Source: a virus (Duplodnaviria > Heunggongvirae > Uroviricota > Caudoviricetes). From it: a stretch of 56,801 nt of DNA. Shown one piece after another: positions 9,186 through 53,285 of this stretch; position 1 is the first letter of the stretch; every line of letters begins with the position of its first letter. The stretch lies in the IMG/VR virus record IMGVR_UViG_2529293216_000012. One strand, 5' to 3'. Position numbers and translations under genes: made by a program. Below the pieces are notes generated by a model that searched no databases, was not told the DNA's origin, and worked only from the letters and a program-made list of their open reading frames with translations.

Positions 9186-9186
9186 G

Positions 9187-11217: not shown

Positions 11218-11220
11218 TTC

Positions 11221-12269: not shown

Positions 12270-12272
12270 TGC

Positions 12273-28015: not shown

Positions 28016-28023
28016 GGTAAGGC

Positions 28024-28880: not shown

Positions 28881-29006
28881 AGAAGCGGCAATTATCCTGG
28901 GGATGGTGACAAAAAGCGGTCCGGAATGGGCGCTTAACCTCCCCCTGTCGCAACTTTACCGGCACTGCCGACAGACAGAAAAAATCATCAGAACGAAGCA
29001 GTAAGT

Positions 29007-33526: not shown

Positions 33527-34130
33527 CGAAGTCATCAGCCGCCTTCTGGCCCCCGTGATGCGGGGTGTTCGTCTGCTGTTCGGGCGTGGTGTACTGACCG
33601 GCACAACGGACACGCTGAAAATCCAGAATGTGCAAATCACCGGTATGGATGGTGAAACCTTTGATGACGTTGAACGCCCCCAGCAGTACGGGCAAATCAG
33701 CGTCCCCCTGCCTGGTGCGGAAGTTTTTCTGGCCTGTGCTGGCGGACAACGGGATCAGGCCGTGGTGCTTGTGGTGGAAGACCGCCGCAGTCGCCCGACC
33801 GGACTTACCGCCGGAGATACCGGCGTGTATCACCATGAGGGGCACCGTATACGTCTGACAAAGAACGGCCGGATCATTGTGACCTGTAAGACGCTGGAGA
33901 TTTACGCCGATGAAGGTGTTCAGGTGGATACACCGGAGGCTCACTTTACCGGTAATGTCACAGTGGATAAGAACCTGCATGTCAAAGGCAATGTGTCCAT
34001 TGACGGCACCGGAAGATCACAGGGGACGTTCACGATGTCCGAAGCGGTTATTGCCGGGATCACCTATTCAGGTCATGTGCATCACGATAACGGTGAAGGC
34101 AGCAAAACGGGAGGACCAGAGAATGGCTGA
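33516..34130 (+). CDS. Mu gp45-like baseplate assembly / spike protein
   Basis: 204 aa; overlapping start and stop. Confidence 0.8.
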   Translation: MMNDEVISRLLAPVMRGVRLLFGRGVLTGTTDTLKIQNVQITGMDGETFDDVERPQQYGQISVPLPGAEVFLACAGGQRDQAVVLVVEDRRSRPTGLTAGDTGVYHHEGHRIRLTKNGRIIVTCKTLEIYADEGVQVDTPEAHFTGNVTVDKNLHVKGNVSIDGTGRSQGTFTMSEAVIAGITYSGHVHHDNGEGSKTGGPENG

Positions 34131-34560
34131 TATTGCTGTCGTCTGGGATCAGGGTTGCGGTTCCCTGCAACTGAACGGCGCAGATCTTCTGACGGATAAC
34201 AGCCTGCTGACTGCGGTCATTATTTCACTGTTTACGGACAGGCGGGCGCTGGATTCCGATGAAATCCCTGACGGCACCCGTGACCGTCGGGGATGGTGGG
34301 GAGACAGTTTCCGGGAGCGCCCCGTTGGCTCCCGTCTCTGGCTGTTAAGCCGTGAAAAGACGCTGTCCTCCGTGGTCAGCCGTGCACAGGCCTATGCTGA
34401 TGAAGCGCTGGCGTGGCTGCATAAAAGCGGTGCTGCCACATCCGTGGTATGTCATGCCATGCGTGTGGGGCATGCTCGCCTTTCGCTTTCCGTGAAAATC
34501 ACCCTGCCGGACGGAAGCAGACATCCGATGATTTTTTATGCTGATATGAAGGGGGAATGA
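34123..34560 (+). CDS. Mu gp46-like baseplate protein
   Basis: Internal ATG (MADIAVVWDQ...) overlapping the gp45 stop (ATGGCTGA) chosen over the long track ORF 33910..34560; WWGD motif shared with the minus-strand homolog. Confidence 0.78.
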   Translation: MADIAVVWDQGCGSLQLNGADLLTDNSLLTAVIISLFTDRRALDSDEIPDGTRDRRGWWGDSFRERPVGSRLWLLSREKTLSSVVSRAQAYADEALAWLHKSGAATSVVCHAMRVGHARLSLSVKITLPDGSRHPMIFYADMKGE

Positions 34561-35642
34561 TGCCTTATCAGCCCTTACCACTGGCGCAACTGATCACACA
34601 GACACAACAGGATATCAGCCAGCGCCTGCCCGGTTCGCAGCCGGGCGTGAATGAAACCACCCTGAATGCCATTGCGTATGCACTGGCGGGTCTGTCAGCA
34701 CAGGAGCATGAACATCTGGCCTGGATCTCCCGGCAGATAATTCCGACAGAAGCTGATGAAGCCGAACTCCTGAAACACTGCGCATTCTGGGGTGTCATCC
34801 GTAAACCGGCTTCCCGCGCTGACGGACCGGTACAACTGATGCTGACCACGGATGCAGGGATCACGGAAGGCGTACTCCTTCAGCGAAGCGATGGGGTTGT
34901 GTACCGCATCACCGGCTCTGCGACCGGAAAAGCCGGAACACTGAATGTTAATGTGGAGGCGGAAAGTGCGGGGCGCGCTGGAAATACCCCGACCGGAACC
35001 CGCCTGTCCTTTATCACGCCACAGGCGGGCATCAACCAGACAGCCACGGTCACCGGCACGGGACTCACCGGTGGTGCGGATGTGGAAACGGTGCCGGAGT
35101 TGCTGTCCAGGCTGGTATTCCGGGTACAGAACCCGCCATCAGGGGGAACACAGTATGATTTTGAACGCTGGGCACGGGAAGTACCGGGCGTGACGCGGGC
35201 ATGGTGTAAGCCTGAATGGCCTGAGGCGGGTAGTGTTGGTGTGACTTTTGTTCAGGATAATAACCCTGACATTTTCCCCGGAGAAGGTGATGTGAAGCGG
35301 GTGGCGGATTATATCCGCAGTCATGATGATCCGGCGACGGGCCAGCCCGTTGGTCAGCCACTTGGGCCGACAATCAGCGTGTTTAAGCTGACCAATAAGC
35401 CGGTGGCGTTTGAGATCAGGATTGTACCCAAAACGCCGGAAAATCAGGCTGCCGTAAAACAGGCATTAACAGACCTGCTTTATAACGAATCGCGGCCGGG
35501 TGGACTTGTATTGCCTTCATCATTCTGGCGGGCTGTTGCAGGGGTGAAAGGACTGGAGGATTTTGAAGTTCGCAGCCCGCTGAAGTCCGTGATGGCCGGA
35601 GATACAGAGTTGCTGACCGTGGGGGAAATCACATGGCTGTAA
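34557..35642 (+). CDS. baseplate J-like protein (Mu gp47)
   Basis: 361 aa; overlapping start. Confidence 0.85.
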   Translation: MMPYQPLPLAQLITQTQQDISQRLPGSQPGVNETTLNAIAYALAGLSAQEHEHLAWISRQIIPTEADEAELLKHCAFWGVIRKPASRADGPVQLMLTTDAGITEGVLLQRSDGVVYRITGSATGKAGTLNVNVEAESAGRAGNTPTGTRLSFITPQAGINQTATVTGTGLTGGADVETVPELLSRLVFRVQNPPSGGTQYDFERWAREVPGVTRAWCKPEWPEAGSVGVTFVQDNNPDIFPGEGDVKRVADYIRSHDDPATGQPVGQPLGPTISVFKLTNKPVAFEIRIVPKTPENQAAVKQALTDLLYNESRPGGLVLPSSFWRAVAGVKGLEDFEVRSPLKSVMAGDTELLTVGEITWL

Positions 35643-36193
35643 CCCTGACCCCGCATCAGCGCGCCCTGTTGCAGTTGCTGCCTGACGGGCTGGCATGGGA
35701 TAAGCGGCCGTCATCCGTTCTTGCGGCTTTGTGCCTGGGCCTCAGTCATTCCACGGAGCGTGTTTCCTGGACCGGTAACCAGATGCTGGCAGAACGTTTT
35801 CCTGATTCATCCCGTCTGCTGCTGGAAGACTGGGAGCGTTATCTGGGGTTACCGGAATGTGATATGACCGGCGCAACCATTCAGGAGCGTCAGCGTTATG
35901 CCGGGAATAAATACCGGATGAAACCCTCTCTTAACCGTGAATTTTATATCCGGTTTGCGGCAGAGTTTGGTTATGAAATAGATATTCAGCCATCACCGGA
36001 TTCACAGTGGGTCAGTATTGTCACGATTAACAGTGAAACCGGCTACCGGAATATGAATGTGCTGGATGATATTCTCACGCCGCTGCGTATTTATGAAGGC
36101 GGTGCGCTGGAATGTATTCTGAACCGTTATAAGCCTGCATGGCAGACGTTTATTTACGTATATGCAAACAGTCACGAAGAGGAGAATATTTAA
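35633..36193 (+). CDS. Mu gp48-like tail protein (DUF2313)
   Basis: 186 aa; homolog of minus-strand 38907..39491. Confidence 0.78.
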   Translation: MAVTLTPHQRALLQLLPDGLAWDKRPSSVLAALCLGLSHSTERVSWTGNQMLAERFPDSSRLLLEDWERYLGLPECDMTGATIQERQRYAGNKYRMKPSLNREFYIRFAAEFGYEIDIQPSPDSQWVSIVTINSETGYRNMNVLDDILTPLRIYEGGALECILNRYKPAWQTFIYVYANSHEEENI

Positions 36194-37095
36194 TGTTCCA
36201 TGTTGATAATAATTCCGGCGTGGCGAATATGCCTGCGCTGGCACCGGCGCAGAGTAATACCACCACCTGGTTTACCGAAGGTGACGGACAAAAAGGTATC
36301 AGCTGGATTGGTCAGGACTGGCTGAATATTCTCCAGGCCGAACTGCTGAATATTCTGGCTGAAGCCAGTATTCAGCCGGATAAGGCGCAGTTAAACCAGC
36401 TTACGCTGTCCATTAAAGCCATTATCGCTGCGAATGCCTTTTCCCGGAAAAACAACCTGAAAGAAATTGCTGATGCCGGTGCGGAAGCCCAGCGTCTTGC
36501 CCGTGGTTATCTTGGTCTTGGGGCGCTTGCCACAAAAAACAGTCTTGGTCCCGGTGACGTTAATGCTCTGGCGAAGGATCAGAACCTTGCCGACCTGGAG
36601 AATGCGGGAACCGCCCGTAATAATCTGGATGTTTACAGCAAAAGCGAAGGTGATAACCGTTACCTGCGCAGGGAGCAGAACGGCGCAGACATTCCGGATA
36701 AAGGCGCTTTTATCGATAACGTTGGTTTGGGAGAAGCGGCAAAACGGGATGTGGGGACAGGGGAAAATCAGATACCGGACATGGCCTCTTTTGCCAGTGG
36801 TGATGGATGGATGAAATTACCCAACGGGAAAATCCTGCAATATGGTCGTGGTGCGGTTACGCCGACATTATCGACGCAAACAATGAGAATTACATTCAGC
36901 ATCCCTTTCTCCAAAAAAGCGGACTGCGCCATGCTTACTCATTCTGGTGATGGCGGTGCGCCTTTAGGCGCTGGGCGAGGGTTCGTGATGACTGCAGAAG
37001 GCCCAACGTTAACCGGCTTTAATTCTGCTTACAGAACGTCATCAACCAGCGACACGGTATCGATGAATTACAGTTGGTGGGCTGTTGGTGAGTAA
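36193..37095 (+). CDS. tail fibre protein (Mu S-like)
   Basis: Internal ATG overlapping the gp48 stop (TAATG); N-terminus MFHVDNNSGVANMPA. Confidence 0.75.
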   Translation: MFHVDNNSGVANMPALAPAQSNTTTWFTEGDGQKGISWIGQDWLNILQAELLNILAEASIQPDKAQLNQLTLSIKAIIAANAFSRKNNLKEIADAGAEAQRLARGYLGLGALATKNSLGPGDVNALAKDQNLADLENAGTARNNLDVYSKSEGDNRYLRREQNGADIPDKGAFIDNVGLGEAAKRDVGTGENQIPDMASFASGDGWMKLPNGKILQYGRGAVTPTLSTQTMRITFSIPFSKKADCAMLTHSGDGGAPLGAGRGFVMTAEGPTLTGFNSAYRTSSTSDTVSMNYSWWAVGE

Positions 37096-37106
37096 TTTTA
37101 TTCAGG

Positions 37107-37559
37107 GTGATTTATATGAATGAATATGTTTATAGCGCAAGGCATAATGCTTTTTTCCCTGTGGATATGATTGATAAATATAAATCAGAGGGATGGGATT
37201 TATCAGACGCTAAGGAAGTAAATCAAAATATTATCAGTGAGTTTATGGCTGAACCGCCACAAGGAAAAATCCGTATTGCCGGAGATGATGGGCTGCCTGC
37301 GTGGGCAGATATTCCTCCACCCACGCATGAAGAACTTATTGAAATTACTGAATCAGAAAGACAGCTACTAATTAACCAGGCCAACGAATACATGAACAGT
37401 AAACAATGGCCCGGTAAAGCCGCTATTGGTCGTCTGAAAGGTGAGGAACTGGCGCAATATAATTTGTGGCTGGATTATCTGGATGCACTGGAGCTGGTTG
37501 ATACCTCCAGTGCGCCAGATATTGAATGGCCTACGCCTCCGGCAGTTCAGGCCAGATGA
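37107..37559 (+). CDS. tail fibre assembly protein (Mu U-like)
   Basis: 150 aa; C-terminal motif LDYLDALELVDTSSAPDIEWPTPP typical of tail fibre assembly chaperones. Confidence 0.85.
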   Translation: MIYMNEYVYSARHNAFFPVDMIDKYKSEGWDLSDAKEVNQNIISEFMAEPPQGKIRIAGDDGLPAWADIPPPTHEELIEITESERQLLINQANEYMNSKQWPGKAAIGRLKGEELAQYNLWLDYLDALELVDTSSAPDIEWPTPPAVQAR

Positions 37560-38133
37560 CATCCGGCGCGGTGCTGGTATCTGTTGCCGTCACCGCGTCA
37601 ATGTAATCCAGCACAGCGTTAAGTCTGGTTGTTTCTGCCTGCGTCGGTTTACGTCCGGCCTGCAATTTCAGTTGAATCAGACTGATGGAAGCCATTGCTG
37701 CATCAATCAGTGACTGGCGCTGTGCTTCTGCCGCTTCTACTGCGGCACCGTGTTGTGCCTCAGTATCTGTCACCCATTTTTCACCATCCCATTTATCGAA
37801 TGGCGTTAACGGGGCGATAGTGGTTGTATTTTCAGGATAATCACCCGGAGCTGTGATTTCTTTGGCGTCTCCCGTTTCGGTGTTATAGACGATTTCACCG
37901 CGATGGTCTGGCACATATTCCCATGAGTTTAAATCCATCGAACGGCAGATAGCATAACCCGCCTTATGTATACCAGGTTCATCCAGACAGGAATATGCAG
38001 GGATACCGACACCAATGGCAAGATATTCATTTGAAGTAGAAATATATTCCCGAGTTTTACCATCATAGTTATAGACGGTAATATTCCCCGCCTTCGTGGC
38101 AATAAGCTCGCTATTTAATACGGCGTTATCCAT
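37531..38133 (-). CDS. tail fibre assembly protein of the second (minus-strand) tail module
   Basis: 200 aa; C-terminus LDYIDAVTATDTSTAPDVIWPELPEA; 3' end overlaps the plus-strand assembly gene by 29 bp. Confidence 0.85.
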   Translation of the reverse strand: MDNAVLNSELIATKAGNITVYNYDGKTREYISTSNEYLAIGVGIPAYSCLDEPGIHKAGYAICRSMDLNSWEYVPDHRGEIVYNTETGDAKEITAPGDYPENTTTIAPLTPFDKWDGEKWVTDTEAQHGAAVEAAEAQRQSLIDAAMASISLIQLKLQAGRKPTQAETTRLNAVLDYIDAVTATDTSTAPDVIWPELPEA

Positions 38134-38903
38134 TATGCAGCCCTCACGATATAGTTAAATGCAATATTTCGTGGACGGGTTTCACTCCCGCCAGTATTAC
38201 CGATACTCCCTCGTGAATGAAGTGTCGGTGATGGGATCAGACTCCCTCCTGTATTTGTGGCATCAAGTCCCCGTCCTTGTGTGTATGTCTTTTTGAAAAT
38301 CGTAGCCAGTTCCCATTCATCTTTTGTGTCGTAACCATCATTGGCAACAACAATATGGCGGTGTTTTTCCAGCATCCCTGTCTGAATGCTCAATAAAACA
38401 CGTCCTGCATCAATACCGCGCCCGTCATCCCAGCCACGAATAAACTCACCACGTAAATCAGGCAATTTATTTGTCGGATAAGCCTTTGCCAGTTCCGGGT
38501 ATTCTTCAGCAGAAAAAGCCGCACCGTTGCATTTCAGCCAGCCTGTTGGCGGTGTGGCTGAAGGCCATGGAACAGGCACACCAACAGGTAATGCAGAGCC
38601 TTCTCCCAAACCAAGGTTTTCGAGAGCCGTTTGCACAGTGCCATCCGATTTGATATCGCCAAACGGATTCTTGCGGCTTAACAGCAGCGCGCGAAGTGCG
38701 GTAAGTAACTGGTCGTGCCGCCCCTTCTCCAGGCTGGCACCGGATGCCTCCACCACGCTGCAAAGTTCCTCCTGCAACATGTCAAAGTAGTCATCATCCA
38801 GATCGGTGGCAGGCGTGCCGGTCTGGGGGTTACCACGGGTAAAACCGTTCTTACCCGCGCCGAACTTATCCTTCTGCGCGGTTTTCGTGTCTATACGATG
38901 CAT
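38133..38903 (-). CDS. tail fibre protein with phage tail-collar domain
   Basis: 256 aa; own ATG 4 nt after the gp48-like stop; collar motif [53 protein letters not shown]. Confidence 0.85.
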
Positions 38904-38906
38904 GGA

Positions 38907-39491
38907 TTACTCCGGATATTTAAAAATTACGTAGGTTTGCGACGGGCAGAGTTTGTTAAGCACACACTCGACAACGGTGTCACCCCAGATACGCAGTGCG
39001 GAATCACAGGGATCGCCACATGTCATCCAGGTGGAGTTGGTGGTGGCTGGCATGTTGACCTGCCAGTAATACCGCCATTCCGGCGCATTCACCGCGTCAG
39101 TACAGGCCGATGAGCAGGTGAAAGTGCTTTTGTCGTATCGCGTGATGGTGGCATCTGGTCTGCCCAGGGCAGCAAGCTGTGCAAGATAAAAATCCTCGTT
39201 GATGCCGCCCGCCAGGTTAACCTTCGCATCCAGCCGTTGCTGACGCTGGCGAAGGGTCTGCGTTCCCGCCGGAATACATTCATCCGGCAGACCGCACAGA
39301 CGCTCCCAGCGGTTTATCAGTTCAGTGGTGGTGCGAGGATCCAGCTCCCGCATCAGGGCATCCGCACGCTGATGAACACGGGTTAATGACGGTGCCGCAC
39401 CGGCAATCGCCGGATCGCTGGCTGACCACGCCGGACCGGGCGGCAACAGTGCCGATAACAGGCGGATGTAATCATCGTTTGTCACGTCCAT
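38907..39491 (-). CDS. Mu gp48-like tail protein (second tail module)
   Basis: 194 aa; homologous in length and motifs to plus-strand 35633..36193. Confidence 0.78.
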
Positions 39492-40540
39492 GAAATCGTC
39501 CCCAGTACCGCCAGTTCGTTTTTCGCAATGGAGATATTGTCCACCGGTGCAAGCAACTGATGGCTGTATTCCCCGTTCGCACCGGAAATCGCCTCACTGA
39601 TACGCGATACCTTGAGTTCTCCCTGCGGATAACCATCACGCAGCAGGAACGAACGCAACTCCGCGGTAATGGCAGCCCGTATTTCCGGTGTGTCCGGCGT
39701 CACGCGGATATGAAAATCCACTTTATGCGCCACCGGCCTGAATACATACAAATCAGAGCCTGCCACCGGGGCCAGTGGCTCAATGTGTTGTCTTGCCGCC
39801 GTTTCCGTTGATTCTTCCGGAATGGGATTAATCAGGTCACTGCTGGCAATCATCACACCGACAGTTCCCGTTCCCATCCAGTGACGGTATGTCCATGCGC
39901 GGGTAATGCCGGGCACTTCTTTAGCCCAGACAACATAGTCCCCGTCAGCCCCGCCCTGAGGCGTCCAGTAATACCGCTCAATGACGCGGGCGCGCCACGT
40001 TTCCAGATCTTCAGTATCGAATCCGCCAGTCAGGGTATCTGCAACACCGGAAGACGGCAGACCATTCACCGGCGTGACCAGGATTAATGCCGTACCGTCG
40101 TCAGCGTTACCGACCGCGCCTGCACTTGAGCAGGCGATCGGCACGCGCAGGACACCACCGGAGCTGGTTGCATCAGCAGTTGCCGTGTACTGAACCAGGT
40201 CATCGCGCTGAATCACGCTCCCGGCGGTCACCTTCAGGCCATCGCTGACACCTTCCCAGCGCATATACCCGCTGGCAGCCGTGGCCCCCTTGCGCGGACA
40301 CCGTTTCATCGCAGCATGTCGCGCCAGCCAGGACTCATCGCACAGGTCAGGCAGCATGTTCATTGCCAGATAATCGATGTAACCGTAAACCGTATGCAGC
40401 GCCGCCGCATACACCTTTGCCCGCACGTCTTCATCCATGCGCCGGAGCGTGTCGCTGACGTCCAGCCTGGCGAATAAATCGTTACGGAGCATACTGATAT
40501 TTTCTGCCAGCGTCGGGCGCTGAAATTCACTGTCCGCCAT
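39482..40540 (-). CDS. baseplate J-like protein (second tail module)
   Basis: 352 aa; conserved order. Confidence 0.85.
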
Positions 40541-40955
40541 GCGTTATCGCACTCCACAGATCATCAAAAGAAATCATTACCGGTCCGTCACGACGCCAGA
40601 GGGTGATACTGTTACCCAGCTCATTAATCCCGGTGCGGCGGATATCCAGATCAATACGGGACACCACGCCGTCATCAATCATCCATTGCAGGCATTCGCG
40701 GATATACCCCCTTACTGTCTGCACCAGCTGATTGGTCAGTTTGCTGCGCTGAAGCAGCCACAGTCGTGAGCCGTAACGGTCATTCTGTACCGCAGGCCAG
40801 GTATCCCCCCACCATCCCATCGGGACGTCGGCGTTGTCATCAGGCTCCGCCCGCCGCCAGGTAAACAGGGAAATCACCACGGCGCGGGTCAGCGGATCCA
40901 GCGGTGCGCTGGCGCAGGTGCGTTTACCGTTCACCGTCAGCCACAGTTCCATCAT
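40527..40955 (-). CDS. Mu gp46-like baseplate protein (second tail module)
   Basis: 142 aa; WWGDTW motif as in plus-strand gp46. Confidence 0.78.
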   Translation of the reverse strand: MMELWLTVNGKRTCASAPLDPLTRAVVISLFTWRRAEPDDNADVPMGWWGDTWPAVQNDRYGSRLWLLQRSKLTNQLVQTVRGYIRECLQWMIDDGVVSRIDLDIRRTGINELGNSITLWRRDGPVMISFDDLWSAITHGGQ

Positions 40956-41500
40956 GCCTCCATCGCTTTATCCGGTTTGTCGGTGTTACTGCCCTGACCG
41001 TTCTCTCTGTGACGATGCCCGTTATAGGCAAGCCGCATCGCTGACATGGTAGTGCCGCTGGAGTCGCACAGGTCTTTCACCTGTCCTGTCACTTCCAGGT
41101 CCATTTCAAAACGTGCTTTAGGTGAATTGCGAAACGTGATCGTTTTACCTGCACCGTCCACCACGATCCCCTCCCGGGTCAGCGTCACAGACTGCCCCTG
41201 ATCGTCATAGACAGCCACCTCACCCGTCTGCAACCCTTTCAGGCGGTAGCGCCGGTCCGACACCGTAACAACCACCGCATGAGAACGGTCGCCATCCGGA
41301 AACAACACCACCGCTTCCGCGCCGCTGTTTGCCCTTGCGGTAAAACCGTAGGGTTCAAGATGTTCAACCCCGGCTTTGGGTTCACCGGCAATCAGGGACA
41401 CATCCACGGTCTGACATTTCGTGGCGGCACTGATGCTTTTCACCACTGCCCGCGCAATCAGGCCGAGAAGTTGTCGCTGCATGGCTTCAATCGTCCTCAT
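40952..41500 (-). CDS. Mu gp45-like baseplate spike protein (second tail module)
   Basis: 182 aa; conserved order. Confidence 0.78.
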   Translation of the reverse strand: MRTIEAMQRQLLGLIARAVVKSISAATKCQTVDVSLIAGEPKAGVEHLEPYGFTARANSGAEAVVLFPDGDRSHAVVVTVSDRRYRLKGLQTGEVAVYDDQGQSVTLTREGIVVDGAGKTITFRNSPKARFEMDLEVTGQVKDLCDSSGTTMSAMRLAYNGHRHRENGQGSNTDKPDKAMEA

Positions 41501-42579
41501 CAGAACGGGTCCTCCTGTACTCTGGCTTTTTTCTTTTTCCGCGCGCCGGGGGCTTCGGGTTCAGGCAGATAAGCATCAGGCGGGCCGACACGGATTTCCG
41601 TCAGGGTGCCGTTCTGGTCCTGAGTAAACGTGACTTCCGAGACAAGCAGTTCGGTATTGTCGAAACCACAGACTGGATCGAAGACAATCACCCGCTGGTT
41701 GGGCTGCCACAGCGTACCGTTACCCTGTCGCCAGCCCTGCACCACATAGGTGGTTTCATCCGTCCGCGCCGCCCGTTGTCGGGCTTCAAAGTCAGCACGC
41801 GCAATACAGCCTGCCCCCGTGGCCTGCCCTGTCTGCCTGATATACATCGGACGGTAACGGGCAATAAATGCGTCCTCTGTGCGGGCCCGCAGCGCGGTGG
41901 TGGTGACCTCACCGAAATCATCGTCGTTTCCGGCACGCTGCCCCGCCACCTGGTAAACAGAAAACCGCTCCCGGATACTCTTCTCCGTATCACAGGAAAG
42001 GATGTTTTCCCCAAGTACCAGCGCGGTATGTGCCCGCGTTGAGCCAATACCGCCAATCACCAGCCTGCCGTGCGGATCGTCGTAAGCCAGCGCCTGCTGC
42101 TGACCGAGTATTTTGTTGATAACCTCAATCACCGTTTCACCGTGATCAGGCTGAACATCAGGAATAACACCCGACGGCGCACCGCTGTTCACCACCTCAA
42201 TGCCGAAAGGCGCAGCAAGCGCCTGCGCAATCTGCACCAGCGAGCGTCCGTTAAACTGTGTCGGTTCGGCTGCACAGTCAATCAGGTCAGCCGTCAGACT
42301 ACGTCCGGCAATACCGGTGCTGACCGAACGGGCATCGTAACGAACGGGAGTCGCCTCCACCCAGCCGGTGATCACCAGCTCATCACCAATCAGCACTTCC
42401 ACTTTTGAACCGTTTTTAATGCGCGGCTGAAGCGTGGTGATACCCTCATCTCCCGGCCACTGGCGAGTGATCTCCACACTGAAATCCCGCGCCAGCCGTT
42501 CAATACCGGCACCGATGCGCACCGATGTCCAGCCATTCCACTCCCGGCCATTTACCCGTAGCGTGACATTGTCGTTCAT
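41500..42579 (-). CDS. Mu P-like baseplate hub protein (second tail module)
   Basis: 359 aa; N-terminus MNDNVTLRVNGREWNGW parallels plus-strand P. Confidence 0.82.
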   Translation of the reverse strand: MNDNVTLRVNGREWNGWTSVRIGAGIERLARDFSVEITRQWPGDEGITTLQPRIKNGSKVEVLIGDELVITGWVEATPVRYDARSVSTGIAGRSLTADLIDCAAEPTQFNGRSLVQIAQALAAPFGIEVVNSGAPSGVIPDVQPDHGETVIEVINKILGQQQALAYDDPHGRLVIGGIGSTRAHTALVLGENILSCDTEKSIRERFSVYQVAGQRAGNDDDFGEVTTTALRARTEDAFIARYRPMYIRQTGQATGAGCIARADFEARQRAARTDETTYVVQGWRQGNGTLWQPNQRVIVFDPVCGFDNTELLVSEVTFTQDQNGTLTEIRVGPPDAYLPEPEAPGARKKKKARVQEDPF

Positions 42580-43904
42580 TGCACTGGCACCTTCAGAGGG
42601 ATCACCGGCACAAAGCCGGGATGCGTAATGGCATTACGCCGGATAATGTCCGCGTCACGCGCCGCGTTATCAAACCAGGTCGCCGCCAGCACCAGCGCGG
42701 GTAAAACCTCATCCGGCGTGCGCTGAATGATCCGTGCAGACTGTTCAAGGCGCGTGTTGATATCCGCATTCAGATCTGCTTTCACCCGGCGCAGCGCCAG
42801 AAACAGCGCATCACTGGTTGTACGGGACAACTCCTTATCAATTGCCGTATTCAGTGTGTCGCGAATGTCGGTCAGTTCTTCCCACGTTGGCAGGTCAACC
42901 GTGTTTTTCACCGCCGGTGCATTGTTCAGTGCCGGATGCGTGACAGAAGGCCAGCCGGTGCTCTGCGCGGGTGTTGTTGACTGCCCTACTGTGGCATTCT
43001 GCATCACCGCGGAAGTTGTGGGCGCAGGCAATCGTGTGACGGCATACGCCGCTTCGCTGATTGCGGTCGTACGAAGGGTGCTGGCAACCACGTTACGCTG
43101 CTGCGTCGCCGTGGCGGTAGTTTTACTGTCCGTTTTCCAGACGCCGCGCGGTTGCAGATCGCTGCCGAGGCTGACACCGGAAAGCGTTTTGATCATGGTG
43201 ACCAGGTCGCTGGCGTTACCATAAAGGCGTTTCCCGGTACGCCACATTTTCTGCACCTGCTCAACGAAATTTTTGCCTGACGATGGTGGCGGCAGAAGTA
43301 CCGAGATATCCCCCTGCAACAGCCTGGCGGCATCCGATACGGCAGAATCCACCACTTTCATCGCATCAGAAACATACCCAAGCATTGTGCTGGCATTACC
43401 GACGACGTCGTTCTGCACAAAATCTGCCACGCCATCGATACTGAAACCACTGAAGCTGTCACTGATGCAGTCATCCAGTGCAGAACAGGATGACATCAGC
43501 GTCTGCGCCGTCGCCGCACCTGAAGTGGGGTAAGAGAGTTCTCCCGCTTCGACAAACTTCAGGTCAAAGCGGACAATACGCCCTTCACTCTTCGATGTGC
43601 TGACCCGAACTTCCCCGTCAACACAGACTTTCAGCTCACCGTAAGTCGGATGGACAAGCGTGCCGGGACCGGGTTTATTCAGCGCGTCAATCAGGCGATC
43701 GCGCTGGTCAAAGCAGTCATCTCCCACCACATAAGCTGTGATGGACGGGCGGAAAGTGATTTTCCCCAGGTCTTCGGTATAGGGTTTGTCGCGGTTCGGG
43801 TATTCGTGCGTTTCCACACGACGACCGGTTCCCGCACTTTCTTCTTCAACCTTAAACGGCACACCGCGAAATGACGCGTCCTGAAGTCTGTCTTTCCACG
43901 TCAT
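42576..43904 (-). CDS. Mu N-like DNA circularisation protein (second tail module)
   Basis: Internal ATG at 43904 with GGAG RBS chosen (MTWKDRLQDASFRGVPF); track ORF extends to 43946. Confidence 0.8.
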   Translation of the reverse strand: MTWKDRLQDASFRGVPFKVEEESAGTGRRVETHEYPNRDKPYTEDLGKITFRPSITAYVVGDDCFDQRDRLIDALNKPGPGTLVHPTYGELKVCVDGEVRVSTSKSEGRIVRFDLKFVEAGELSYPTSGAATAQTLMSSCSALDDCISDSFSGFSIDGVADFVQNDVVGNASTMLGYVSDAMKVVDSAVSDAARLLQGDISVLLPPPSSGKNFVEQVQKMWRTGKRLYGNASDLVTMIKTLSGVSLGSDLQPRGVWKTDSKTTATATQQRNVVASTLRTTAISEAAYAVTRLPAPTTSAVMQNATVGQSTTPAQSTGWPSVTHPALNNAPAVKNTVDLPTWEELTDIRDTLNTAIDKELSRTTSDALFLALRRVKADLNADINTRLEQSARIIQRTPDEVLPALVLAATWFDNAARDADIIRRNAITHPGFVPVIPLKVPVQ

Positions 43905-43964
43905 ATAAACTCCGTACATAAAAAATCCCACCGGAGTGGGACTCATTAACAGATTAATTTTTCA

Positions 43965-45800
43965 TTACCTGCCAAAGCGCGTATAGCCAACATCATGGCT
44001 GACATCAAAACCGCTGGATCGCGTTTCCATAACCCGCATACCCGGAGGCGAATTCACAAAAGAGACCTTGATCTCACCATCAACTTTTGGCGCAGAAGCT
44101 TTGTTAATCATGAAGGGATTCGGGCCTGTGGCACCGGAGGCGTTGTTTGACTGAGCCGGATCTACCGCCTGATAAGGTGTGTATCCCCGTGCCGGTATTC
44201 CCGTCCCATAAGCATCATAAGCACCCGCGCCCCACTGCGCAGAGTTAATGGCATCGACCGTGTCACCGGAACTGTCGGTAAACCACTCAATAATTGGCTT
44301 CAGTTTGTCCCACATATCCTGAAACCACTTAACAACCGGTCCCCAGTTATTGATTACCATCCCCAGCGGCGACCAGGCAAAAACCTTCTTCAGAAGTTCC
44401 CAGCCAGCCTCAAAATAAGGACCAATGGTTTCCCAGAGCTTCTTGAAATAAGGTCCGACAACATCCCAGTTAGTGATAATTAATCCCGCAGCCAGGGCTA
44501 TCGCCGTCGCAATCATTCCAATCGGCGTCATCGACATGATCCTGCTGACAATACTGATGGCACCGCCAACGCCCATCAATCCCAGTTTCAGAATCGCAAG
44601 ACCGGCAGCAAGCCCGACGACGCCGCGAATAACCCGGGGATTTTCATCCGCAAACTTCGTGAATTTTTCCCCTAACTCCCCCAGCCATTGCGTGATATTT
44701 TTGGCGTCACCAGAAAATGCGCCGCCAATAGCCGCAAGGCCGTTAGTTGCGGTCCCCGTCATTGCCTCCCACAGGTTGGACAGCGTACCAAGCTGGGCCT
44801 GAACACGTTTATTCAGGCTGGCCTGTTTATTCATCTTCTGCTGGATCTGATCGTAGCCATCCTTTCCTTTATCGATTAGTGCATTGACCACCTGAAGGGT
44901 TTCGGCATCATCACCAAATATTGCCTTAAGTACACCTGTTCGCTTAACGTCGGTCAGTTTTCGCAGCTTTGCCAGTTGCCTGAACATGTTATCAAGACCG
45001 CCAAAACTTCCTTTGCCGTCAGTAAAATCGAGCTGTACCCCGAGTTTCTGGCGGGCCATGATTTTATTGACGTCCCTGATTTTCTTAACGCTTAATCCGG
45101 ACTGGATAACTTTTCGCAGGGCGTTACCTGCCGACTCCCCGTTCATCCCCATCTGATCCATCATGACGCTGATGGGGGCAAGGCTCTGTGCAGCCTGAAG
45201 ACCGTCCTTGTTCACCATCTTCAGAACAGAGCTGGTTTTAGTGAAGAAGGACAACATGTTGGTATCGTCAACACCCAGATAAAACGCCTTCTGGATAGTG
45301 TCGAACAGCCCCATCATGTCTTCTGACGCCGTTCCGGTAGCATCCTGCATCTTTGCAGCAAACTCAGCAGCCGCTTCCGGTGTTTTTTTCAGTTGTACCG
45401 CAAGATAAGCTGTCGCTTTACCCACACCGCCAAGAATGTTTTCTGCCGGGATCCCCTGACGCACCAGCATCTGCATCATGTTCTGGAAATCAGCCGTTGT
45501 ACCGGGTAGCTGGTTACCCAGGCCAATAGCCAGTTTATTGATGTCCTGAAAGCTCTTTCCAACCTCGCCGTTCGCATCCATCATGGCGACTTTCAGCCCG
45601 GTGGCGGCGTTTTCCTGATCGGCATAAGATTTCAGGGAAAGCGTCAGACCCGCTGCCAGTCCGCCACCAAGCGCCAGCCCACCCTGTGACGCTTCTTCCG
45701 CCTGGCGTTTAAATCCCCGGATTTTCTTTTGCATTTTCGACAGCGCGGGAGAAAGCCTGTCGACACCGGTGATCAACGCCTTAAGCTCAAATTCCGCCAT
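43965..45800 (-). CDS. tail tape measure protein (second tail module)
   Basis: 611 aa, helical; hydrophobic Gly/Ala-rich segment; position between chaperone and N-like gene. Confidence 0.85.
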   Translation of the reverse strand: MAEFELKALITGVDRLSPALSKMQKKIRGFKRQAEEASQGGLALGGGLAAGLTLSLKSYADQENAATGLKVAMMDANGEVGKSFQDINKLAIGLGNQLPGTTADFQNMMQMLVRQGIPAENILGGVGKATAYLAVQLKKTPEAAAEFAAKMQDATGTASEDMMGLFDTIQKAFYLGVDDTNMLSFFTKTSSVLKMVNKDGLQAAQSLAPISVMMDQMGMNGESAGNALRKVIQSGLSVKKIRDVNKIMARQKLGVQLDFTDGKGSFGGLDNMFRQLAKLRKLTDVKRTGVLKAIFGDDAETLQVVNALIDKGKDGYDQIQQKMNKQASLNKRVQAQLGTLSNLWEAMTGTATNGLAAIGGAFSGDAKNITQWLGELGEKFTKFADENPRVIRGVVGLAAGLAILKLGLMGVGGAISIVSRIMSMTPIGMIATAIALAAGLIITNWDVVGPYFKKLWETIGPYFEAGWELLKKVFAWSPLGMVINNWGPVVKWFQDMWDKLKPIIEWFTDSSGDTVDAINSAQWGAGAYDAYGTGIPARGYTPYQAVDPAQSNNASGATGPNPFMINKASAPKVDGEIKVSFVNSPPGMRVMETRSSGFDVSHDVGYTRFGR

Positions 45801-45941
45801 GTGTGCGTTTCTCCTGCTCTATCCTGTTTGCCTGACTGACCAGCAAGGGAATTTCACTGATCGGCATATTCAGCAATTCGAAAGGATTAATGCGCCAGTA
45901 GCTGGCGCAGTCAAAGAAGCGATCAGTGAGGTATTCAGCCG

Positions 45942-46211
45942 TCAGGCCTGGAGGAAAAAACCAGCCACAAGCCACGCCGCTGCATTCAGGTCTGCCGGAG
46001 ACATCTGGTCGACAGAGCTTTGCGGCACTTTCGCCAGCCGCACAATGTATTTCGACACCACATGCGCCAGAAGTCTGACTGACTCATCCTGATTCATCTG
46101 GTAGGGATACCCCAGCTCGCGGACATCCTTCCCGGTGGGTTCATCAAACTCCAGTACGGAGAGTGTCTCGCCATGAGCAGTAATCGGTTTCTTTAACTCA
46201 AGCTCTTTCAT
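45942..46211 (-). CDS. tail assembly chaperone (second tail module)
   Basis: 89 aa between tube and tape measure; overlapped at its 3' end by an ORF in another frame (45787..45975). Confidence 0.6.
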   Translation of the reverse strand: MKELELKKPITAHGETLSVLEFDEPTGKDVRELGYPYQMNQDESVRLLAHVVSKYIVRLAKVPQSSVDQMSPADLNAAAWLVAGFFLQA

Positions 46212-46567
46212 TACTGGTAATCCCCTTCTTCACCGTGGAACTCAAGATCAACCGTGCCTTCTTCGGCATTATGGTTCGCTTCGCCGTGCAGCCAGGCAGA
46301 CGACAGTACATAGACCTGACCGTTCGCCAGCTCGGCAGTGATGGTCATCTCATCAGACGAGGTGATTTTGCTTACCGGAAAATTCTTCGGCACCTTGAAG
46401 GTCCCTTTGACATAAGGCGCACGGTGAGTTTCCTTGCGGTCCACTGAACCGTCCAGGCCGATGATGTCATCGTTAACCGTTTTGTTCATGGGCACCTCAA
46501 TGCCGCCGGTCAGCGATAGCTGCTGACCGTCAATTTTGAAATAACAGGTTCCCCCGATACGGGCCAT
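46211..46567 (-). CDS. tail tube protein (second tail module)
   Basis: 118 aa directly after the sheath. Confidence 0.85.
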   Translation of the reverse strand: MARIGGTCYFKIDGQQLSLTGGIEVPMNKTVNDDIIGLDGSVDRKETHRAPYVKGTFKVPKNFPVSKITSSDEMTITAELANGQVYVLSSAWLHGEANHNAEEGTVDLEFHGEEGDYQ

Positions 46568-48063
46568 TATGCAGACTCCTCTGAATACTGAAGACGGAAC
46601 TGATTAACCACGGCAAAGACACGCAGCTGGTTAACATAGTCAGGCGGGAACAGCGTGTTCAGGCGGTTCGGATCGCTGGCATCACGCTCCACAACCAGGT
46701 ACTGCTTAAACAGTTCGTAGTTTTCCACGATCCCCGCACGCTCAAGCTGACGGTAGGTTGCCAGCAGTTCCCCTTTGATCACCGCCGGGGTGACAATCGC
46801 CTGACCGGGACCAAAGCGGGTACCGTCACTGGCAAGCTTGTGACGCCCGTACTTACTGGTAATGACGGATTTCAGTTTGCGCAGTACATACGCGCTGGTA
46901 TGCAGCGTCTCACTGTCGAGGTAACTGTTATCCGCAACCCCGTAAGCGTTTTTCCTGTACGTGGTGACATCACGCTGAATGCGTAGTACCCCGCTTTCGA
47001 CATACGCCGTTGCCACGCCATGAGACAGCAGGGTCTGTTGTTCGGTCATCGTGAACCGTTTCCCCTTCGGCGCAGGCAGCATACCCACCAGCTCACCGGT
47101 CTGCGTGGGACGTGCCGGATCGTTGCGGATAAACACCGCTGCGCGGGCGGTACGGCTTGCCGCCAGCTCGTCGGCAGGCGTCTGGGTCTCTTTTTCGTAC
47201 CCCGCCAGGGTAATGTGCTGCTGGTTAAACTGGTCACCTGCGGTCACCAGTTCTGACAGCGTGCCGATCTTTGCCGTATACACATGACCATACAGCTGAC
47301 GCGCATAGCTCCAGCGACCGCTGGTATCGTTCATCTCGGTCACCAGCGTGTTAACGGAGGCCGTGTCGTTGAACGGCAGGCCGATATAATCAAACGGCTC
47401 ATCCGCCATTGCAGCCACCGCGCCGGTGAGAACCGGAGCACCCGTTCCGGCGGTACCCGTCGCCACGGCAATCTGTACGCCCGCTGGCAGCACTTCGCCC
47501 CCACCAAAGCCGTAGTAATTGAGGCTGACAGGAATTTCATTCCCACAAAGCCCCTTATGACGCGCGGTCAGTGTGACCACGCCTGCCAAAGATGAAGCCG
47601 TAAACGGCAGGGTCGGAACGGCATTGATGGCATCCTGGATACTGCTGGCAATCATCGTGACGTTATCGCCGTTAGTCACCGGTGCCTGCACGCGGGTACG
47701 TCCTACATACACATTCACCGTGCCGGTTTCGGTTGCCGCCCCGGTCACCGTCAGCGTAACTGTTGCCGCCGCACCTGTGGATTCAGGAACGGCAATCACA
47801 TACAGCTCGCCAAACGGGTCAGTCTGGCGATAAGCCTCGACCATACGCGCCAGCTGACTTCCCGCACCACAAATCTGGCGTGCATAGTCTGCCGACGACA
47901 TCAGTACCAGACTGTTGGCAACAATCTCTGCACCGTTATTGGCATGACCAATCAGCAGCGATGCTCCGCTGTCCTGTGCAGTATTCGCCGCCTGGTTATC
48001 CATTTCCGCATAAAACAACGGAACCAGCGTATTCGACGGAATGGTGTTAAAGCTTATCGTCAT
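46567..48063 (-). CDS. contractile tail sheath protein (second tail module)
   Basis: 498 aa; C-terminal block ERDASDPNRLNTLFPPDYVNQLRVF homologous to plus-strand sheath. Confidence 0.9.
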   Translation of the reverse strand: MTISFNTIPSNTLVPLFYAEMDNQAANTAQDSGASLLIGHANNGAEIVANSLVLMSSADYARQICGAGSQLARMVEAYRQTDPFGELYVIAVPESTGAAATVTLTVTGAATETGTVNVYVGRTRVQAPVTNGDNVTMIASSIQDAINAVPTLPFTASSLAGVVTLTARHKGLCGNEIPVSLNYYGFGGGEVLPAGVQIAVATGTAGTGAPVLTGAVAAMADEPFDYIGLPFNDTASVNTLVTEMNDTSGRWSYARQLYGHVYTAKIGTLSELVTAGDQFNQQHITLAGYEKETQTPADELAASRTARAAVFIRNDPARPTQTGELVGMLPAPKGKRFTMTEQQTLLSHGVATAYVESGVLRIQRDVTTYRKNAYGVADNSYLDSETLHTSAYVLRKLKSVITSKYGRHKLASDGTRFGPGQAIVTPAVIKGELLATYRQLERAGIVENYELFKQYLVVERDASDPNRLNTLFPPDYVNQLRVFAVVNQFRLQYSEESA

Positions 48064-48225: not shown

Positions 48226-48786
48226 TCAGGAAGGAAGGGTTATTTCGGTGTGATGTTCGATATCGCCGTCAGGCCCGTTACCGGGCTCGAGATAATCAAC
48301 ATCAATCGCCAGCGTTTGCAGTTCATCCAGACTGTTCAGATCATCCTGCTGGCGGGTATCGTCTTCAGTCAGCTCGCTGATGACCGAAAAATCGAACTGA
48401 TAAATCAGCTCATGACGATTCAGATCCAGCAGCGTGCCGCCGTCATAGGTAATCGGGTTACCGCACGCTTCCGGGTTCCAGCCCAGCAAGGCCTTAAAGA
48501 GCATCTGCCGGACATCGTCCACCACATCATACGAAGCAAACTGACCGAGCTCATCACGCCCGTTACTCAGTATGACAACCACGGAGAAGCCCTCTTTCAG
48601 CTCCTGCCAGTAGTCGGTCTGGCTTTTGTTTTCTCCCGGAGAGTCATCACCCGGTACCACATACGCCGCCGGGAGTCTCAGCTTTCCGACCTCCGGCAGA
48701 TTTTTGAACTGTGCCGCGCCTGCCACCCGGTTTTCAAAATACGGGCAGCGGGCACGCAGCGCAGCAATAACAGGCGTCAGTTTCAT
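48226..48786 (-). CDS. tail completion / head-tail joining protein (gp37-like position)
   Basis: 186 aa; upstream of the sheath. Confidence 0.55.
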   Translation of the reverse strand: MKLTPVIAALRARCPYFENRVAGAAQFKNLPEVGKLRLPAAYVVPGDDSPGENKSQTDYWQELKEGFSVVVILSNGRDELGQFASYDVVDDVRQMLFKALLGWNPEACGNPITYDGGTLLDLNRHELIYQFDFSVISELTEDDTRQQDDLNSLDELQTLAIDVDYLEPGNGPDGDIEHHTEITLPS

Positions 48787-49289
48787 CTGCGTCGTCGCTC
48801 AGGCTTCAGTGATTTACGTAATTCTCGCGCCAGAAAATAGCGTGTCCAGCTGCGGTTCTTTTCAAGCGTTTCCACCATAAAGTTATTACGTGGAGCCAGC
48901 CGCCAGCCGCTGCCACCGGATGCACCACGATGATGACTACGACGACGTTTTGCTCCTCCCCGGACACCAAAAAACAGAAACGCCGGATAGAAGTCACCAG
49001 AGATCATCCGGTTCCCCTTCCCGTTGCGCTGGTTAGGGGCAATGCGTGTCATAAAACCGGCTCGCTTTTTACTGGCTCTCGGCACCATGTAACCAATCGA
49101 ACGAGCCAGGCGTCCGGTCTGATAACCGGGGTTTTCACCCGGTGCCGACCGCGCACGGCGCATCACCAGCCGACGGGCATCACGCATATGACGCTGCCCA
49201 ATCGTGACAAACGCCCGCCGGACACGGGCGCGGTTAAAGCGCATCTCGGCGGGCTGCTGAACATCAACGTGAAAAAAGGGAGTCGCCAT
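48783..49289 (-). CDS. hypothetical basic virion protein (head-tail joining region)
   Basis: 168 aa, Arg-rich, translationally coupled. Confidence 0.5.
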   Translation of the reverse strand: MATPFFHVDVQQPAEMRFNRARVRRAFVTIGQRHMRDARRLVMRRARSAPGENPGYQTGRLARSIGYMVPRASKKRAGFMTRIAPNQRNGKGNRMISGDFYPAFLFFGVRGGAKRRRSHHRGASGGSGWRLAPRNNFMVETLEKNRSWTRYFLARELRKSLKPERRRR

Positions 49290-49674
49290 TGCTGCCTCCG
49301 TGACTCTGCGTAAATTCGCCCAGTTCCGTACACTCCAGCAGCAGAAAGCGCCGCGCCCCGTTCAGATCGCGCTGACGTTTCACCCGGTACACACTGTCAT
49401 CACAGACCACCTCATAATCAGCAGTGATCCCGCGGCGGTAGCGAATGGTGATGTAATGGGTGATGGCGTCCCCGGTCTGCGCGGTTTCCTGCCAGGTGGT
49501 GGCACTGGTCTGGATAACCTTCGCCCATGCCCGGAACGCAACCGGGTATTGAGGCTCCACGCCAAAGTTATCCGCGGGCATATCCACCCGCTGGCGGATC
49601 AGGACGCGTTTATTCAGTTCGCCGGGGTCCGGCAGTATGTAGGTTGCGCTGGTCTGCGCCTGACGAATTTTCAT
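49264..49674 (-). CDS. head-tail adaptor / head closure protein
   Basis: 136 aa; position after the connector in an HK97-type head module. Confidence 0.55.
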   Translation of the reverse strand: MKIRQAQTSATYILPDPGELNKRVLIRQRVDMPADNFGVEPQYPVAFRAWAKVIQTSATTWQETAQTGDAITHYITIRYRRGITADYEVVCDDSVYRVKRQRDLNGARRFLLLECTELGEFTQSHGGSNGDSLFSR

Positions 49675-49994
49675 AGTGGTATAAGGCGATAAGGAGCAAC
49701 CAACCAGTTAAAACTCATTGGCAACTCCATTTTCTCAACGTCTGTAACCGTTGAGCGGTTTTCGTAGAAATGGCTGACAAGTAGCAGAAGTGCCAGCTTC
49801 ACATCATCAGATATCACAAGCCCATCAGGATCATCCGCAGGCCTGTCATCTGCGGTTGCATACAACTTACGGTTAAGGAAGTTTTCCGTACGACTCTGAG
49901 CGGCCTTACCAAGCAGTTCAAGCAACTCATCTTCATCAGAGAAATCATCATCCAGACGGAGCTGAAGCTTAATCTCTTCCATTTTTAACAGCAT
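49671..49994 (-). CDS. head-tail connector protein (gp6-like)
   Basis: Internal ATG at 49994 (MLLKMEEIKLQLRLDDDFSDEDELLELL) with AGGAGG RBS, downstream of the post-capsid hairpin; track ORF extends to 50039. Confidence 0.55.
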   Translation of the reverse strand: MLLKMEEIKLQLRLDDDFSDEDELLELLGKAAQSRTENFLNRKLYATADDRPADDPDGLVISDDVKLALLLLVSHFYENRSTVTDVEKMELPMSFNWLVAPYRLIPL

Positions 49995-50072
49995 AAAACC
50001 TCCTGTGCCCGCCAGAACGCGGGCACAAAAAAACCGCATTACGCGGCGTGCTGTATTACGTAAAAAGACTAA

Positions 50073-51302: not shown

Positions 51303-51312
51303 GATGTTTCCT

Positions 51313-51915
51313 TTACGCGTTAAGAAGGGTCAGGACGCGTTCACGCGCCATACGTTGATTAATGGCTTTCTGTAGCGCGCCGCTGTTGCGCGCCTCCTGC
51401 CATGCTTTCATGGAGCGAACAGCCGAGTCAGCCTCCTGATAGGCAGGATATGTCACAGGACTGACATCCAGCAGACGGGAAAAGCGGGTTATCTCGCGAA
51501 TAACAACCCCGTCCTCATCCTGATACCACTCCTCGCCGTCACGGGCGACACGGAAAGCAAAAGATGACTGGTTAATATCTCCACGTTGCATCGGGGCCAG
51601 CACCAGATCACGAATGGTCTGTGTCTCCGGAGCCTGGATGTCATAGCGCAATCCGCGCTCATCAACTGAAAGATTCAGCGTGCCTGCTGCACTACGCCCA
51701 AGAATAAAATTAGGATCGTGGTTAAACAGTGCGCGTACATCATCACCAAGCACATCGTCAAAAGCGCCGGGCCGGATGATTTCGCGGAATGAACCAAATA
51801 TCAGCTCAGAACGACAGTCAAACACCGATCCATAACCGATAATGTGCGCAGGGTTATCGTCATGCCGCTCAGCACGCACCTCACCGCTGTAACAACGGAT
51901 TTCACGGTCATTCAT
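51313..51915 (-). CDS. prohead protease, HK97 family
   Basis: Track ORF 51313..51972; internal ATG at 51915 (MNDREIRCYSGEVRAE...) just after the portal stop with GAGGG RBS preferred. Confidence 0.8.
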   Translation of the reverse strand: MNDREIRCYSGEVRAERHDDNPAHIIGYGSVFDCRSELIFGSFREIIRPGAFDDVLGDDVRALFNHDPNFILGRSAAGTLNLSVDERGLRYDIQAPETQTIRDLVLAPMQRGDINQSSFAFRVARDGEEWYQDEDGVVIREITRFSRLLDVSPVTYPAYQEADSAVRSMKAWQEARNSGALQKAINQRMARERVLTLLNA

Positions 51916-53134: not shown

Positions 53135-53285
53135 GCGTCCCCCTTCTGGTCATAGCCAGTGCGCCCACCAGCAGTAAACCGCCGGACAGCATCAGAGCCG
53201 GAGCCATACCAAACTGCAGGTAAAACCCGCACGTAAGCAGGCCAAAACCAGCCAGCCCGATAACATCAGCAATTAGTGATTTCAT
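53124..53285 (-). CDS. small hydrophobic protein (53 aa) between TerL and portal, absent from the ORF track
   Basis: Hand-translated: [53 protein letters not shown]; start overlaps the TerL stop (ATGA). Confidence 0.35.

Follow-up and report, generated by a model that had tools for sequence, protein, structure and literature searches.

The viral record IMGVR_UViG_2529293216_000012 (Caudoviricetes; 56,801 nt, the whole of which we call the window) holds, as read from its sequence, a pair of distinct E. coli O157:H7 prophages: a Mu-like transposable phage is nested in an SfV-like phage that we name B. We consider it highly probable that these nested prophages were rearranged by invertase exchange between one crossover site of each, gixL of the Mu-like phage and pixR of B, with inversion of about 38 kb. 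The reference loci were the thrW prophage B of E. coli O157:H7 FRIK944 (L001) and a Mu-like prophage (L002), and searches of complete genomes covered 5,426 complete E. coli genomes.

A hybrid crossover site lies inside a hybrid tail-fibre gene

The match to the Mu-like reference ends at ~36728, and the match to B starts at 36718 (window 36718-56801 corresponds to L001 36424->16357 in reverse orientation, with 99.91% identity). In a three-way alignment, the window tracked the Mu-like reference up to ...TTATCGATAACGTTGGTTT (...AACGTTGGTTT) and B from AAACGTTGGTTTGGGAGAA... (AAACGTTGGTTT) onwards, and the stretch common to both parents at the breakpoint was 11-12 bp, centred on the core in the middle of a 26-bp site. 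This site, h1 (36710-36735, + strand), reads TTATCGATAACG-TT-GGTTTGGGAGAA, with the core TT at 36722-36723. It is unique in the window, with a chance expectation of 0, and has the layout of a Gin/Hin/Pin crossover site, with 12-bp half-sites around a 2-bp core. Given as outer half, core, and inner half, the parental sites are TTATCGATAACG-TT-GGTTTACGGGAA (gixL) and ATCCCTGAAACC-TT(C)-GGTTTACGGGAT (gixR) in the Mu-like phage, and CTCTCGAAAACC-TT-GGTTTGGGAGAA (pixL) and TTTTCTTAAACG-TT-GGTTTGGGAGAA (pixR) in B. Half-site bookkeeping resolves h1 into the outer half of gixL and the inner half of pixR, the latter being the published e14 P-segment repeat. An intact pixL at 38601-38626 (- strand) is the inverted partner of h1; the 24-nt arms of the pair are 92% complementary, and the core is TT in both. 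Between them lies the e14-type invertible P segment of B (36723-38613, ~1.9 kb), which is bounded by this inverted repeat, is 100% identical to that of FRIK944, and separates two convergent fibre genes.

Because h1 joins the outer half of gixL to a B inner half, the fibre gene at 36193-37095 (+ strand, 300 aa) is a hybrid. Alignment, translation, and Pfam analysis revealed a Mu-like constant part (aa 1-177) in frame with the alternative variable part of B, Sv' (Gp53-like_C), and the matching chaperone gene of B, tfa', follows directly on the hybrid gene. Every parental and hybrid fusion that was translated was in frame around the motif N(V/L)GLGE / GLRE. An exact look-up with the annotated start at 36193 found the hybrid protein on 4 contigs only of the public collection, and the protein from the longest open reading frame (ORF; start at 36139) had no exact match there. 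The h1 junction was absent from the complete genomes. In the window, no resolvase-family gene stands next to the segment, presumably because the inversion moved pinE and gin to the far end: pinE adjoins the segment in the B reference, and both genes are found intact at the far end in another contig, L014.

The nesting of the two prophages is visible on both sides of this junction. The chromosomal flank (1-1444, + strand) consists of proA (1-1254) and the tRNA-Thr(CGT) gene thrW (1369-1444; ARAGORN), matches proA-thrW of FRIK944 at 100%, and provides in thrW the attachment site of B. The left arm of B follows at 1459-4187 (- strand, the reference orientation), with a tyrosine integrase (ORF 1459-2622) and yfdT/yfdR-like early-left genes as annotated in L001; window 1-4189 is 100% identical to L001 617-4805, and the same left end occurs in many E. 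coli O157:H7 genomes. The 5-bp sequence ACACC stands at 4183-4187, and the Mu-like prophage (4188-36722, + strand; identified by Pfam and 99.87% identical to L002) runs from its left end TGTAACCAGG... to the core of the crossover site in the fibre gene. At the right of the window, the head-tail joining, head, terminase, HNH, and iss/bor region of B (48226-56801, - strand) is inverted relative to the integrase and thrW. In all 41 complete genomes with this fibre region, the late genes of B are on the plus strand and the integrase is on the minus strand next to thrW; the late genes in the window have the opposite orientation.

The reciprocal junction was predicted and found

The other product of a gixL-pixR exchange was built in silico as a 13-aa pinE-side leader (MPVSHNLCIFLNV) fused to the Mu-like Sv (GLRETVNK..., 139/140 aa). 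The prediction preceded the look-up, in which exact matches to the protein turned up in E. coli FRIK1999 (EKH42294.1) and among Logan assemblies; the hybrid fibre of the window is EKH42608.1, from the same accession series. The order in L014 was as predicted: pinE, the site h2 (outer half of pixR plus Mu inner half), the G segment, gin ... com mom, the Mu right end, and the B early region. Beyond the Mu right end, L014 continues with B from L001 4799, and the left arm in the window stops at L001 4803, so ACACC flanks both Mu-like ends as a Mu-type 5-bp target duplication, the second copy lying with the right end on that other contig, outside the window. A single sequencing run, SRR8924463, contains both junctions (L003, L029), and the window junction occurs in independent assemblies, namely an NCBI draft, Logan SRR8924463, and Logan SRR427067. 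The reciprocal contig of FRIK1999 would end ~270 bp from the point in B at which the window ends. Since the window and L014 contigs nearly abut in B, the inverted block would measure ~38 kb, and the position of the gap suggests an assembly break at a lysis-region repeat common to lambdoid prophages. The end of the window (56460-56801) falls inside the iss/bor-like lipoprotein gene of B, directly after the lysis cassette.

The same junction might in principle have arisen by RecA-dependent recombination between identical 1.9-kb fibre segments, if a Mu-like phage already carrying B cassettes had entered B and h1 were older than the inversion. A Mu-like prophage with B cassettes at the G position does exist (L004) and would offer a possible 1.9 kb of homology. 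However, the reciprocal junction carries a Mu-type G segment rather than a second B-type segment (L014, L029), so no long homology was available. Both breakpoints, moreover, fall at the core dinucleotide, and L004 itself requires two site-specific exchanges. This route is very unlikely.

Slightly less probable still is an assembly artefact, in which short-read assemblers misjoined the prophages at repeated invertase sites. It is true that invertible segments are heterogeneous in cultures and that all the recombinant junctions come from draft or Logan assemblies, none from complete genomes. But the parental sites have 11-12 bp in common, which is below any assembler k-mer, and the same junction was recovered in the independent assemblies listed above. 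Nor would misjoining account for a reciprocal junction that was found after being predicted or for a Mu target duplication that fits.

Proposed course of the rearrangement

We propose that an SfV-family prophage B, with an e14-like invertible fibre segment and pinE, would first have integrated at thrW, and that a Mu-like phage with its own G segment and gin would then have transposed into the B early region, leaving the 5-bp target duplication. A serine invertase of the Gin/Pin family would next have recombined gixL of the Mu-like phage with pixR of B, ~38 kb apart and in inverted orientation. Strand exchange at the 2-bp core TT would invert all the DNA between the two sites, that is, the P segment, tail, head, terminase, lysis, and early-right genes of B together with the Mu-like right arm (attR, mom, com, gin, G). 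The outcome would be the order seen in the window, in which the Mu-like tail module leads through the hybrid fibre gene and the P segment to the B fibre and tail genes on the other strand. The two insertion steps and the reciprocal exchange at the sites can be read from the sequences themselves; from these we infer the order of events and an enzyme that could be Gin of the Mu-like phage, PinE of B, or another resident Pin.

A serine invertase acting at the core TT is suggested by the presence of a Gin-like enzyme, by known cross-action, and by the fact that both segments occur in both orientations. The Mu-like invertase matched the Mu Gin structures 3UJ3/4M6F at E=2e-91 and was 73% identical to PinE of B, and both genes are intact. 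Pin, Gin, and Hin enzymes act on one another's sites (PMC12529663 and references in it). The G and P segments each occur in both orientations in nature, indicating that such invertases are active.

After the inversion, the Mu-like ends would be out of their normal relative orientation, and so the element should no longer transpose as a unit. The int/xis arm of B would be parted from the rest of B by 32.5 kb, within a composite far larger than the SfV genome. Both late operons would stay intact, and each fibre gene would be complete. The inversion therefore probably immobilises both prophages unless it is reversed. Because h1 and h2 are complete crossover sites and the genes for both invertases are intact, the inversion could in principle still be reversed at the present day.

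Several points weigh against this course of events. The window itself contains neither the reciprocal junction nor either of the invertase genes, and it is linked to FRIK1999 by a matching arrangement, neighbouring accessions, and near-abutting ends, with no single continuous sequence. None of the junctions was found in the complete (long-read) genomes, and all the evidence is from short-read drafts. The flipped-state protein of the window composite, ScMu-SvB, was not in the collection by exact look-up. Wild-type Gin/Hin-type invertases favour nearby sites, a single supercoiled domain, and an enhancer in cis (in invertible fibre segments of this family a Fis-dependent one inside the invertase gene), and a distance of ~38 kb may be less favourable.

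The two facing tail modules resemble different phages

The window contains two Mu-type contractile tail modules on opposite strands with matching gene order, as the first-pass annotation had noticed: a Mu-like module at 26513-37559 (+ strand) and a B module at 37531-48063 (- strand). From sheath to gp48 (26513-36193, + strand), the Mu-like module comprises sheath 26513-28015, tube 28024-28389, chaperone 28404-28880, tape measure 29007-31082, N 31069-32418, P 32402-33526, gp45 33516-34130, gp46 34123-34560, gp47 34560-35642, and gp48 35633-36193. From gp48 to sheath (38907-48063, - strand; 97.6% identical to phage SfV), the B module comprises gp48 38907-39491, gp47 39482-40540, gp46 40527-40952, gp45 40952-41500, P 41500-42579, N 42576-43946, tape measure 43965-45800, chaperone 45942-46211, tube 46211-46567, and sheath 46567-48063. 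Its tail-fibre gene (38133-38903, - strand) encodes 256 aa with a tail-collar domain (Pfam Collar).

Eight protein pairs were 27-38% identical by BLASTP: sheath (36% over 508 aa, E=7e-87; 500 vs 498 aa), N / DNA circularization (28%, E=4e-26), P (32%, E=7e-43), gp45 (31%, E=7e-21), gp46 (34%, E=6e-15), gp47 (29%, E=1e-45), gp48 (27%, E=5e-15), and the fibre-assembly C-termini (38%, E=7e-10). The proposed list of paired homologues is borne out to this extent, but the tube, chaperone, tape measure, and fibre pairs were not significantly similar. Despite this, the two tubes belong to one Pfam family (PF10618) and so do the two chaperones (PF10109); the tape measures are of different families (PF20155 vs PF10145). 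Both sheath C-terminal motifs cited in that annotation are present, and Pfam agrees that the modules are attached to different head types, Mu-type and HK97-type. The fibre tips do differ, but the C-terminus of the plus-strand fibre, described as Mu S-like, is instead Gp53-like_C from the invertible segment of B.

The first-pass annotation took the modules for two diverged copies in one locus, whose homology would make them substrates for recombination and module exchange; such copies would be paralogues from duplication or module capture. Eight significantly similar protein pairs in the same gene order are what paralogues would give. At the nucleotide level, however, the longest exact match between the modules was 15 nt and the best alignment was 69% over 84 nt, while blastn with word size 7 gave nothing usable and dc-megablast no match. 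Each module is moreover part of a separate known prophage type, near-identical in one case to SfV (97.6%) and in the other to a Mu-like phage (99.9%) that is present at many sites and has its own ends and target duplication here. Paralogy within one locus is thus less probable even than misassembly, and the modules appear to be old homologues from two independent phages rather than a local duplication. Recombination linking them did occur, though through the 26-bp serine-invertase sites in the fibre genes and not through the tail genes, and it is because of recombination at these crossover sites that the modules would now face each other.

The least credible explanation is an inversion by the Mu transposase through intramolecular replicative transposition, for although the element encodes Mu A and B and replicative transposition can produce inversions, such inversions have a Mu copy on either side, the two in inverted orientation, and break at the Mu ends, whereas here one Mu copy is split internally in the fibre gene at a gix site and both Mu ends carry the normal 5-bp duplication of one target.

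Related arrangements occur in other isolates

The four outer arms (ScMu, gin side, ScB, and pinE side) were found in five arrangements around the segments G and P, one of which is parental. In the window-type arrangement, ScMu and ScB stand on either side of P, and pinE and gin on either side of G. A single 97.8-kb contig of GCA_011836255.2 carries a reciprocal cassette swap: on one side (L004), the Mu-like phage has the whole P interior of B between the outer halves of gixL and gixR, and on the other (L016), B has the Mu G interior between the outer halves of pixL and pixR, where the predicted ScB-SvMu protein was found exactly. Exactly this swap would result if a window-type intermediate underwent a second inversion, between pixL and gixR. 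As the Mu-like insertion site differs, adjoining the portal gene of B, GCA_011836255.2 is a separate lineage or the result of a later transposition. A look-up with B gp48 for the L004 contig returned ordinary B prophages only, and these showed P-segment flipping.

Convergent B and Mu-like tails were also found around one G segment, which occurs in both orientations (L015/17/19/20 vs L031), indicating that the hybrid sites still work and that one switch serves two fibre genes. A further arrangement reads ScB-G-gin (L018). The ScB-SvMu junction was absent from the complete genomes; as no junction was found there, the recombination events are rare or the recombinants are short-lived.

The core of gixR was polymorphic in unrecombined Mu-like prophages (L002 11087-11112; L021-L028 ~7585-7612). 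It was TT in three genomes and TC in three, two of which also had TC at gixL, and a 1-bp insertion (TTC) was present in five (L002, L021, L022, L014, and L018). Every recombined gixR seen was an allele without the insertion, and in the genomes with the insertion allele gixL alone had recombined. Possibly the insertion makes gixR inactive, so that gixL would be available for pairing with B sites, although the numbers are small.

Features of the Mu-like prophage and of prophage B

At the left end of the Mu-like prophage, which starts with TG at 4188, a Mu-type transposase A (5600-7690) and an ATPase B (7762-8694) stand beside an early region with a repressor (4555-5166, - strand) and a ner-like gene (5323-5589), as in Mu-like phages. 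The transposition genes were recognised by Pfam (Mu-transpos_C, HTH_Tnp_Mu_1, Phage-MuB_C; PF09299, PF02316, PF09077), and the head genes (17489-24900) are Mu-type by Portal_Mu, Mu F, Mu I, and gpT. The same element, >=99.8% identical, was found at many unrelated places in other E. coli, among them siiEA, betT, a plasmid, and a position next to a portal gene. Its right end, common to two independent insertions (L014 16403-16432 and L004 17410-17440), reads ...ATCGCCGCGCTAT(A), ...GCGCTAT(A), where ...CA would be canonical; since A is the first base of both flanks, the terminus can be placed only to within one base. In the right arm (L002 11827-13866; L014 12142-14181), a 679-aa SASA/DUF6645 protein, sialate O-acetylesterase-like, is encoded between gin and com/mom; this cargo is not in phage Mu itself. 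The guanine-plus-cytosine content is ~43-51% in the Mu-like early region and ~57-59% in the late region (1-14000 vs 14000-36000), and ~52-58% in the B late region.

In FRIK944, B has the order int, early-left, cI/cro-like, replication, Q, lysis, iss, terminase, HK97-type head, Mu-type tail, fibre, invertible segment, and pinE. Its head genes in the window are capsid 50073-51302, protease 51313-51972, portal 51908-53134, and terminase 53282-55015 and 55012-55515 (all on the - strand), and the head is HK97-type (PF05065, Peptidase_S78). The structural region, from terminase to baseplate, matched phage SfV at 97.6% identity across 98% of its length. The pairing of an HK97-type head and a Mu-type tail is a trait of the SfV family, as is a tyrosine integrase at thrW. 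No gtr (O-antigen glucosylation) cassette is annotated between the tail genes and attP in the B reference copy, where the invertible segment, pinE, a GIY-YIG gene, and an AraC gene occupy that position; B is an SfV relative and not a serotype-converting phage.

The P segment in the window contains Sv' (to 37095, + strand), tfa' (37116-37559, + strand), tfaE (37531-38133, - strand), and the variable part of the B fibre (- strand), so that two Caudo_TAP genes converge at 37116-38133. Their 3' ends overlap by 29 nt (37531-37559), an overlap that the reference prophage has too. O157 prophages that are otherwise identical had the segment in both orientations (L005 vs L006, 10589-12807). For one orientation, the gene caller misses the in-frame ScB-Sv' fusion and calls a 131-aa ORF only.

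The P-like baseplate gene of B at 41500-42579 is intact in the window (359 aa), and its copy at L001 30579-31642 is annotated as frameshifted in FRIK944. In other O157 strains, IS3/IS1203 insertions and large deletions were seen in the thrW prophage, and in L011 (7235-8448) an insertion sequence has taken the place of the whole stretch from the lysis region to gp46. Several lineages have a decaying prophage B. Beyond B (L001 40407-44001; L014 1590-6051) lie a second integrase, an ABC-three-component (CTD6/MC2/AAA_23) putative defence system, and then P4-like Psu/Ogr-Delta genes, on account of which a putative satellite or defence island adjoins the thrW prophage.

Implications and comparison with known invertible systems

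No part of phage genomes is more mosaic than the tail-fibre genes, and the movement of cassettes between unrelated phages has mostly been inferred. We tentatively extend the reading of the window to a wider one, in which the Din-family sites of co-resident unrelated prophages might form one recombination network in natural E. coli. Such a network would give recurrent flips of tens of kb, which split the Mu-like element, trap both prophages, and are possibly reversible. It would also give homology-free transfer of receptor-binding cassettes between transposable and lambdoid phages, and single segments able to serve the fibre genes of two phages; the window would then be a one-inversion intermediate of the GCA_011836255.2 swap. 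If this holds, the arrangements would show directly, in natural isolates, a mechanism by which tail fibres become mosaic. To our knowledge, mosaicism by such invertase exchange has until now been inferred from sequence comparison only.

Here an exchange between the fibre switches of two different prophages can be seen in both of its reciprocal products, which points to a homology-independent route for host-range exchange and to a new way in which structural variation arises in E. coli O157:H7. Prophage-bounded inversions in this serotype are usually ascribed to homologous recombination. A practical consequence is that hybrid fibre genes beside invertase sites in draft assemblies can be genuine and not the result of misassembly.

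The nested prophages resemble several described systems. As in the G segment/Gin system of Mu (Din family: Gin, Cin, Hin, Pin), 26-bp sites with a 2-bp core lie inside a fibre gene, and a constant part is read in frame with alternative variable parts, each with its own assembly chaperone. Unlike in Mu, the recombining sites come from two prophages and the products are hybrid sites and a two-phage fibre gene, and the inverted block is ~38 kb with most of a second phage, compared with a cassette of 1.4-3 kb.

B shares with the P segment/PinE system of e14 the inner repeat TTGGTTTGGGAGAAG, stfE/tfaE-like cassettes, and an adjoining pinE. PinQ and PinR act in trans on e14, and invertases of one prophage act on the sites of another (PMC12529663). 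In the published e14 cases, an in-trans enzyme works on the site pair of one element, whereas here one site of each element was exchanged and fibre genes were fused.

With respect to the head and tail, B is like SfV, which has an HK97-type head and a Mu-type tail next to proA at thrW, so that this mosaic was already known; unlike SfV, B has an invertible fibre segment and pinE where SfV has its own distal genes. The Mu-like element is like a Mu-like prophage of Shiga toxin-producing E. coli that is 'inserted' in the Stx phages LC727881/LC727895 (94.8% identity over 91% of the query), and insertion of this element into other prophages is thus on record; in the window, by contrast, the inversion has divided the element and given it another fibre tip.

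A literature search for invertase recombination between prophages returned only in-trans action on one element and one-element shufflons, and it is weak evidence because the older Cin/Min quasi-site literature was thinly covered. The multiple-inversion systems, namely Min of p15B and the 'shufflon' of a P2-like prophage in enteropathogenic E. coli (PMC4272514), likewise have more than two compatible sites and yield several arrangements and fibre C-termini, and here four outer arms and two segments occur in at least five combinations. In those systems, all the sites lie in one element within a few kb, whereas here they are spread across two nested prophages. What is new relative to the G, P, and Min systems is recombination between the sites of two prophages, with reciprocal products, a completed swap, and shared segments in natural isolates.

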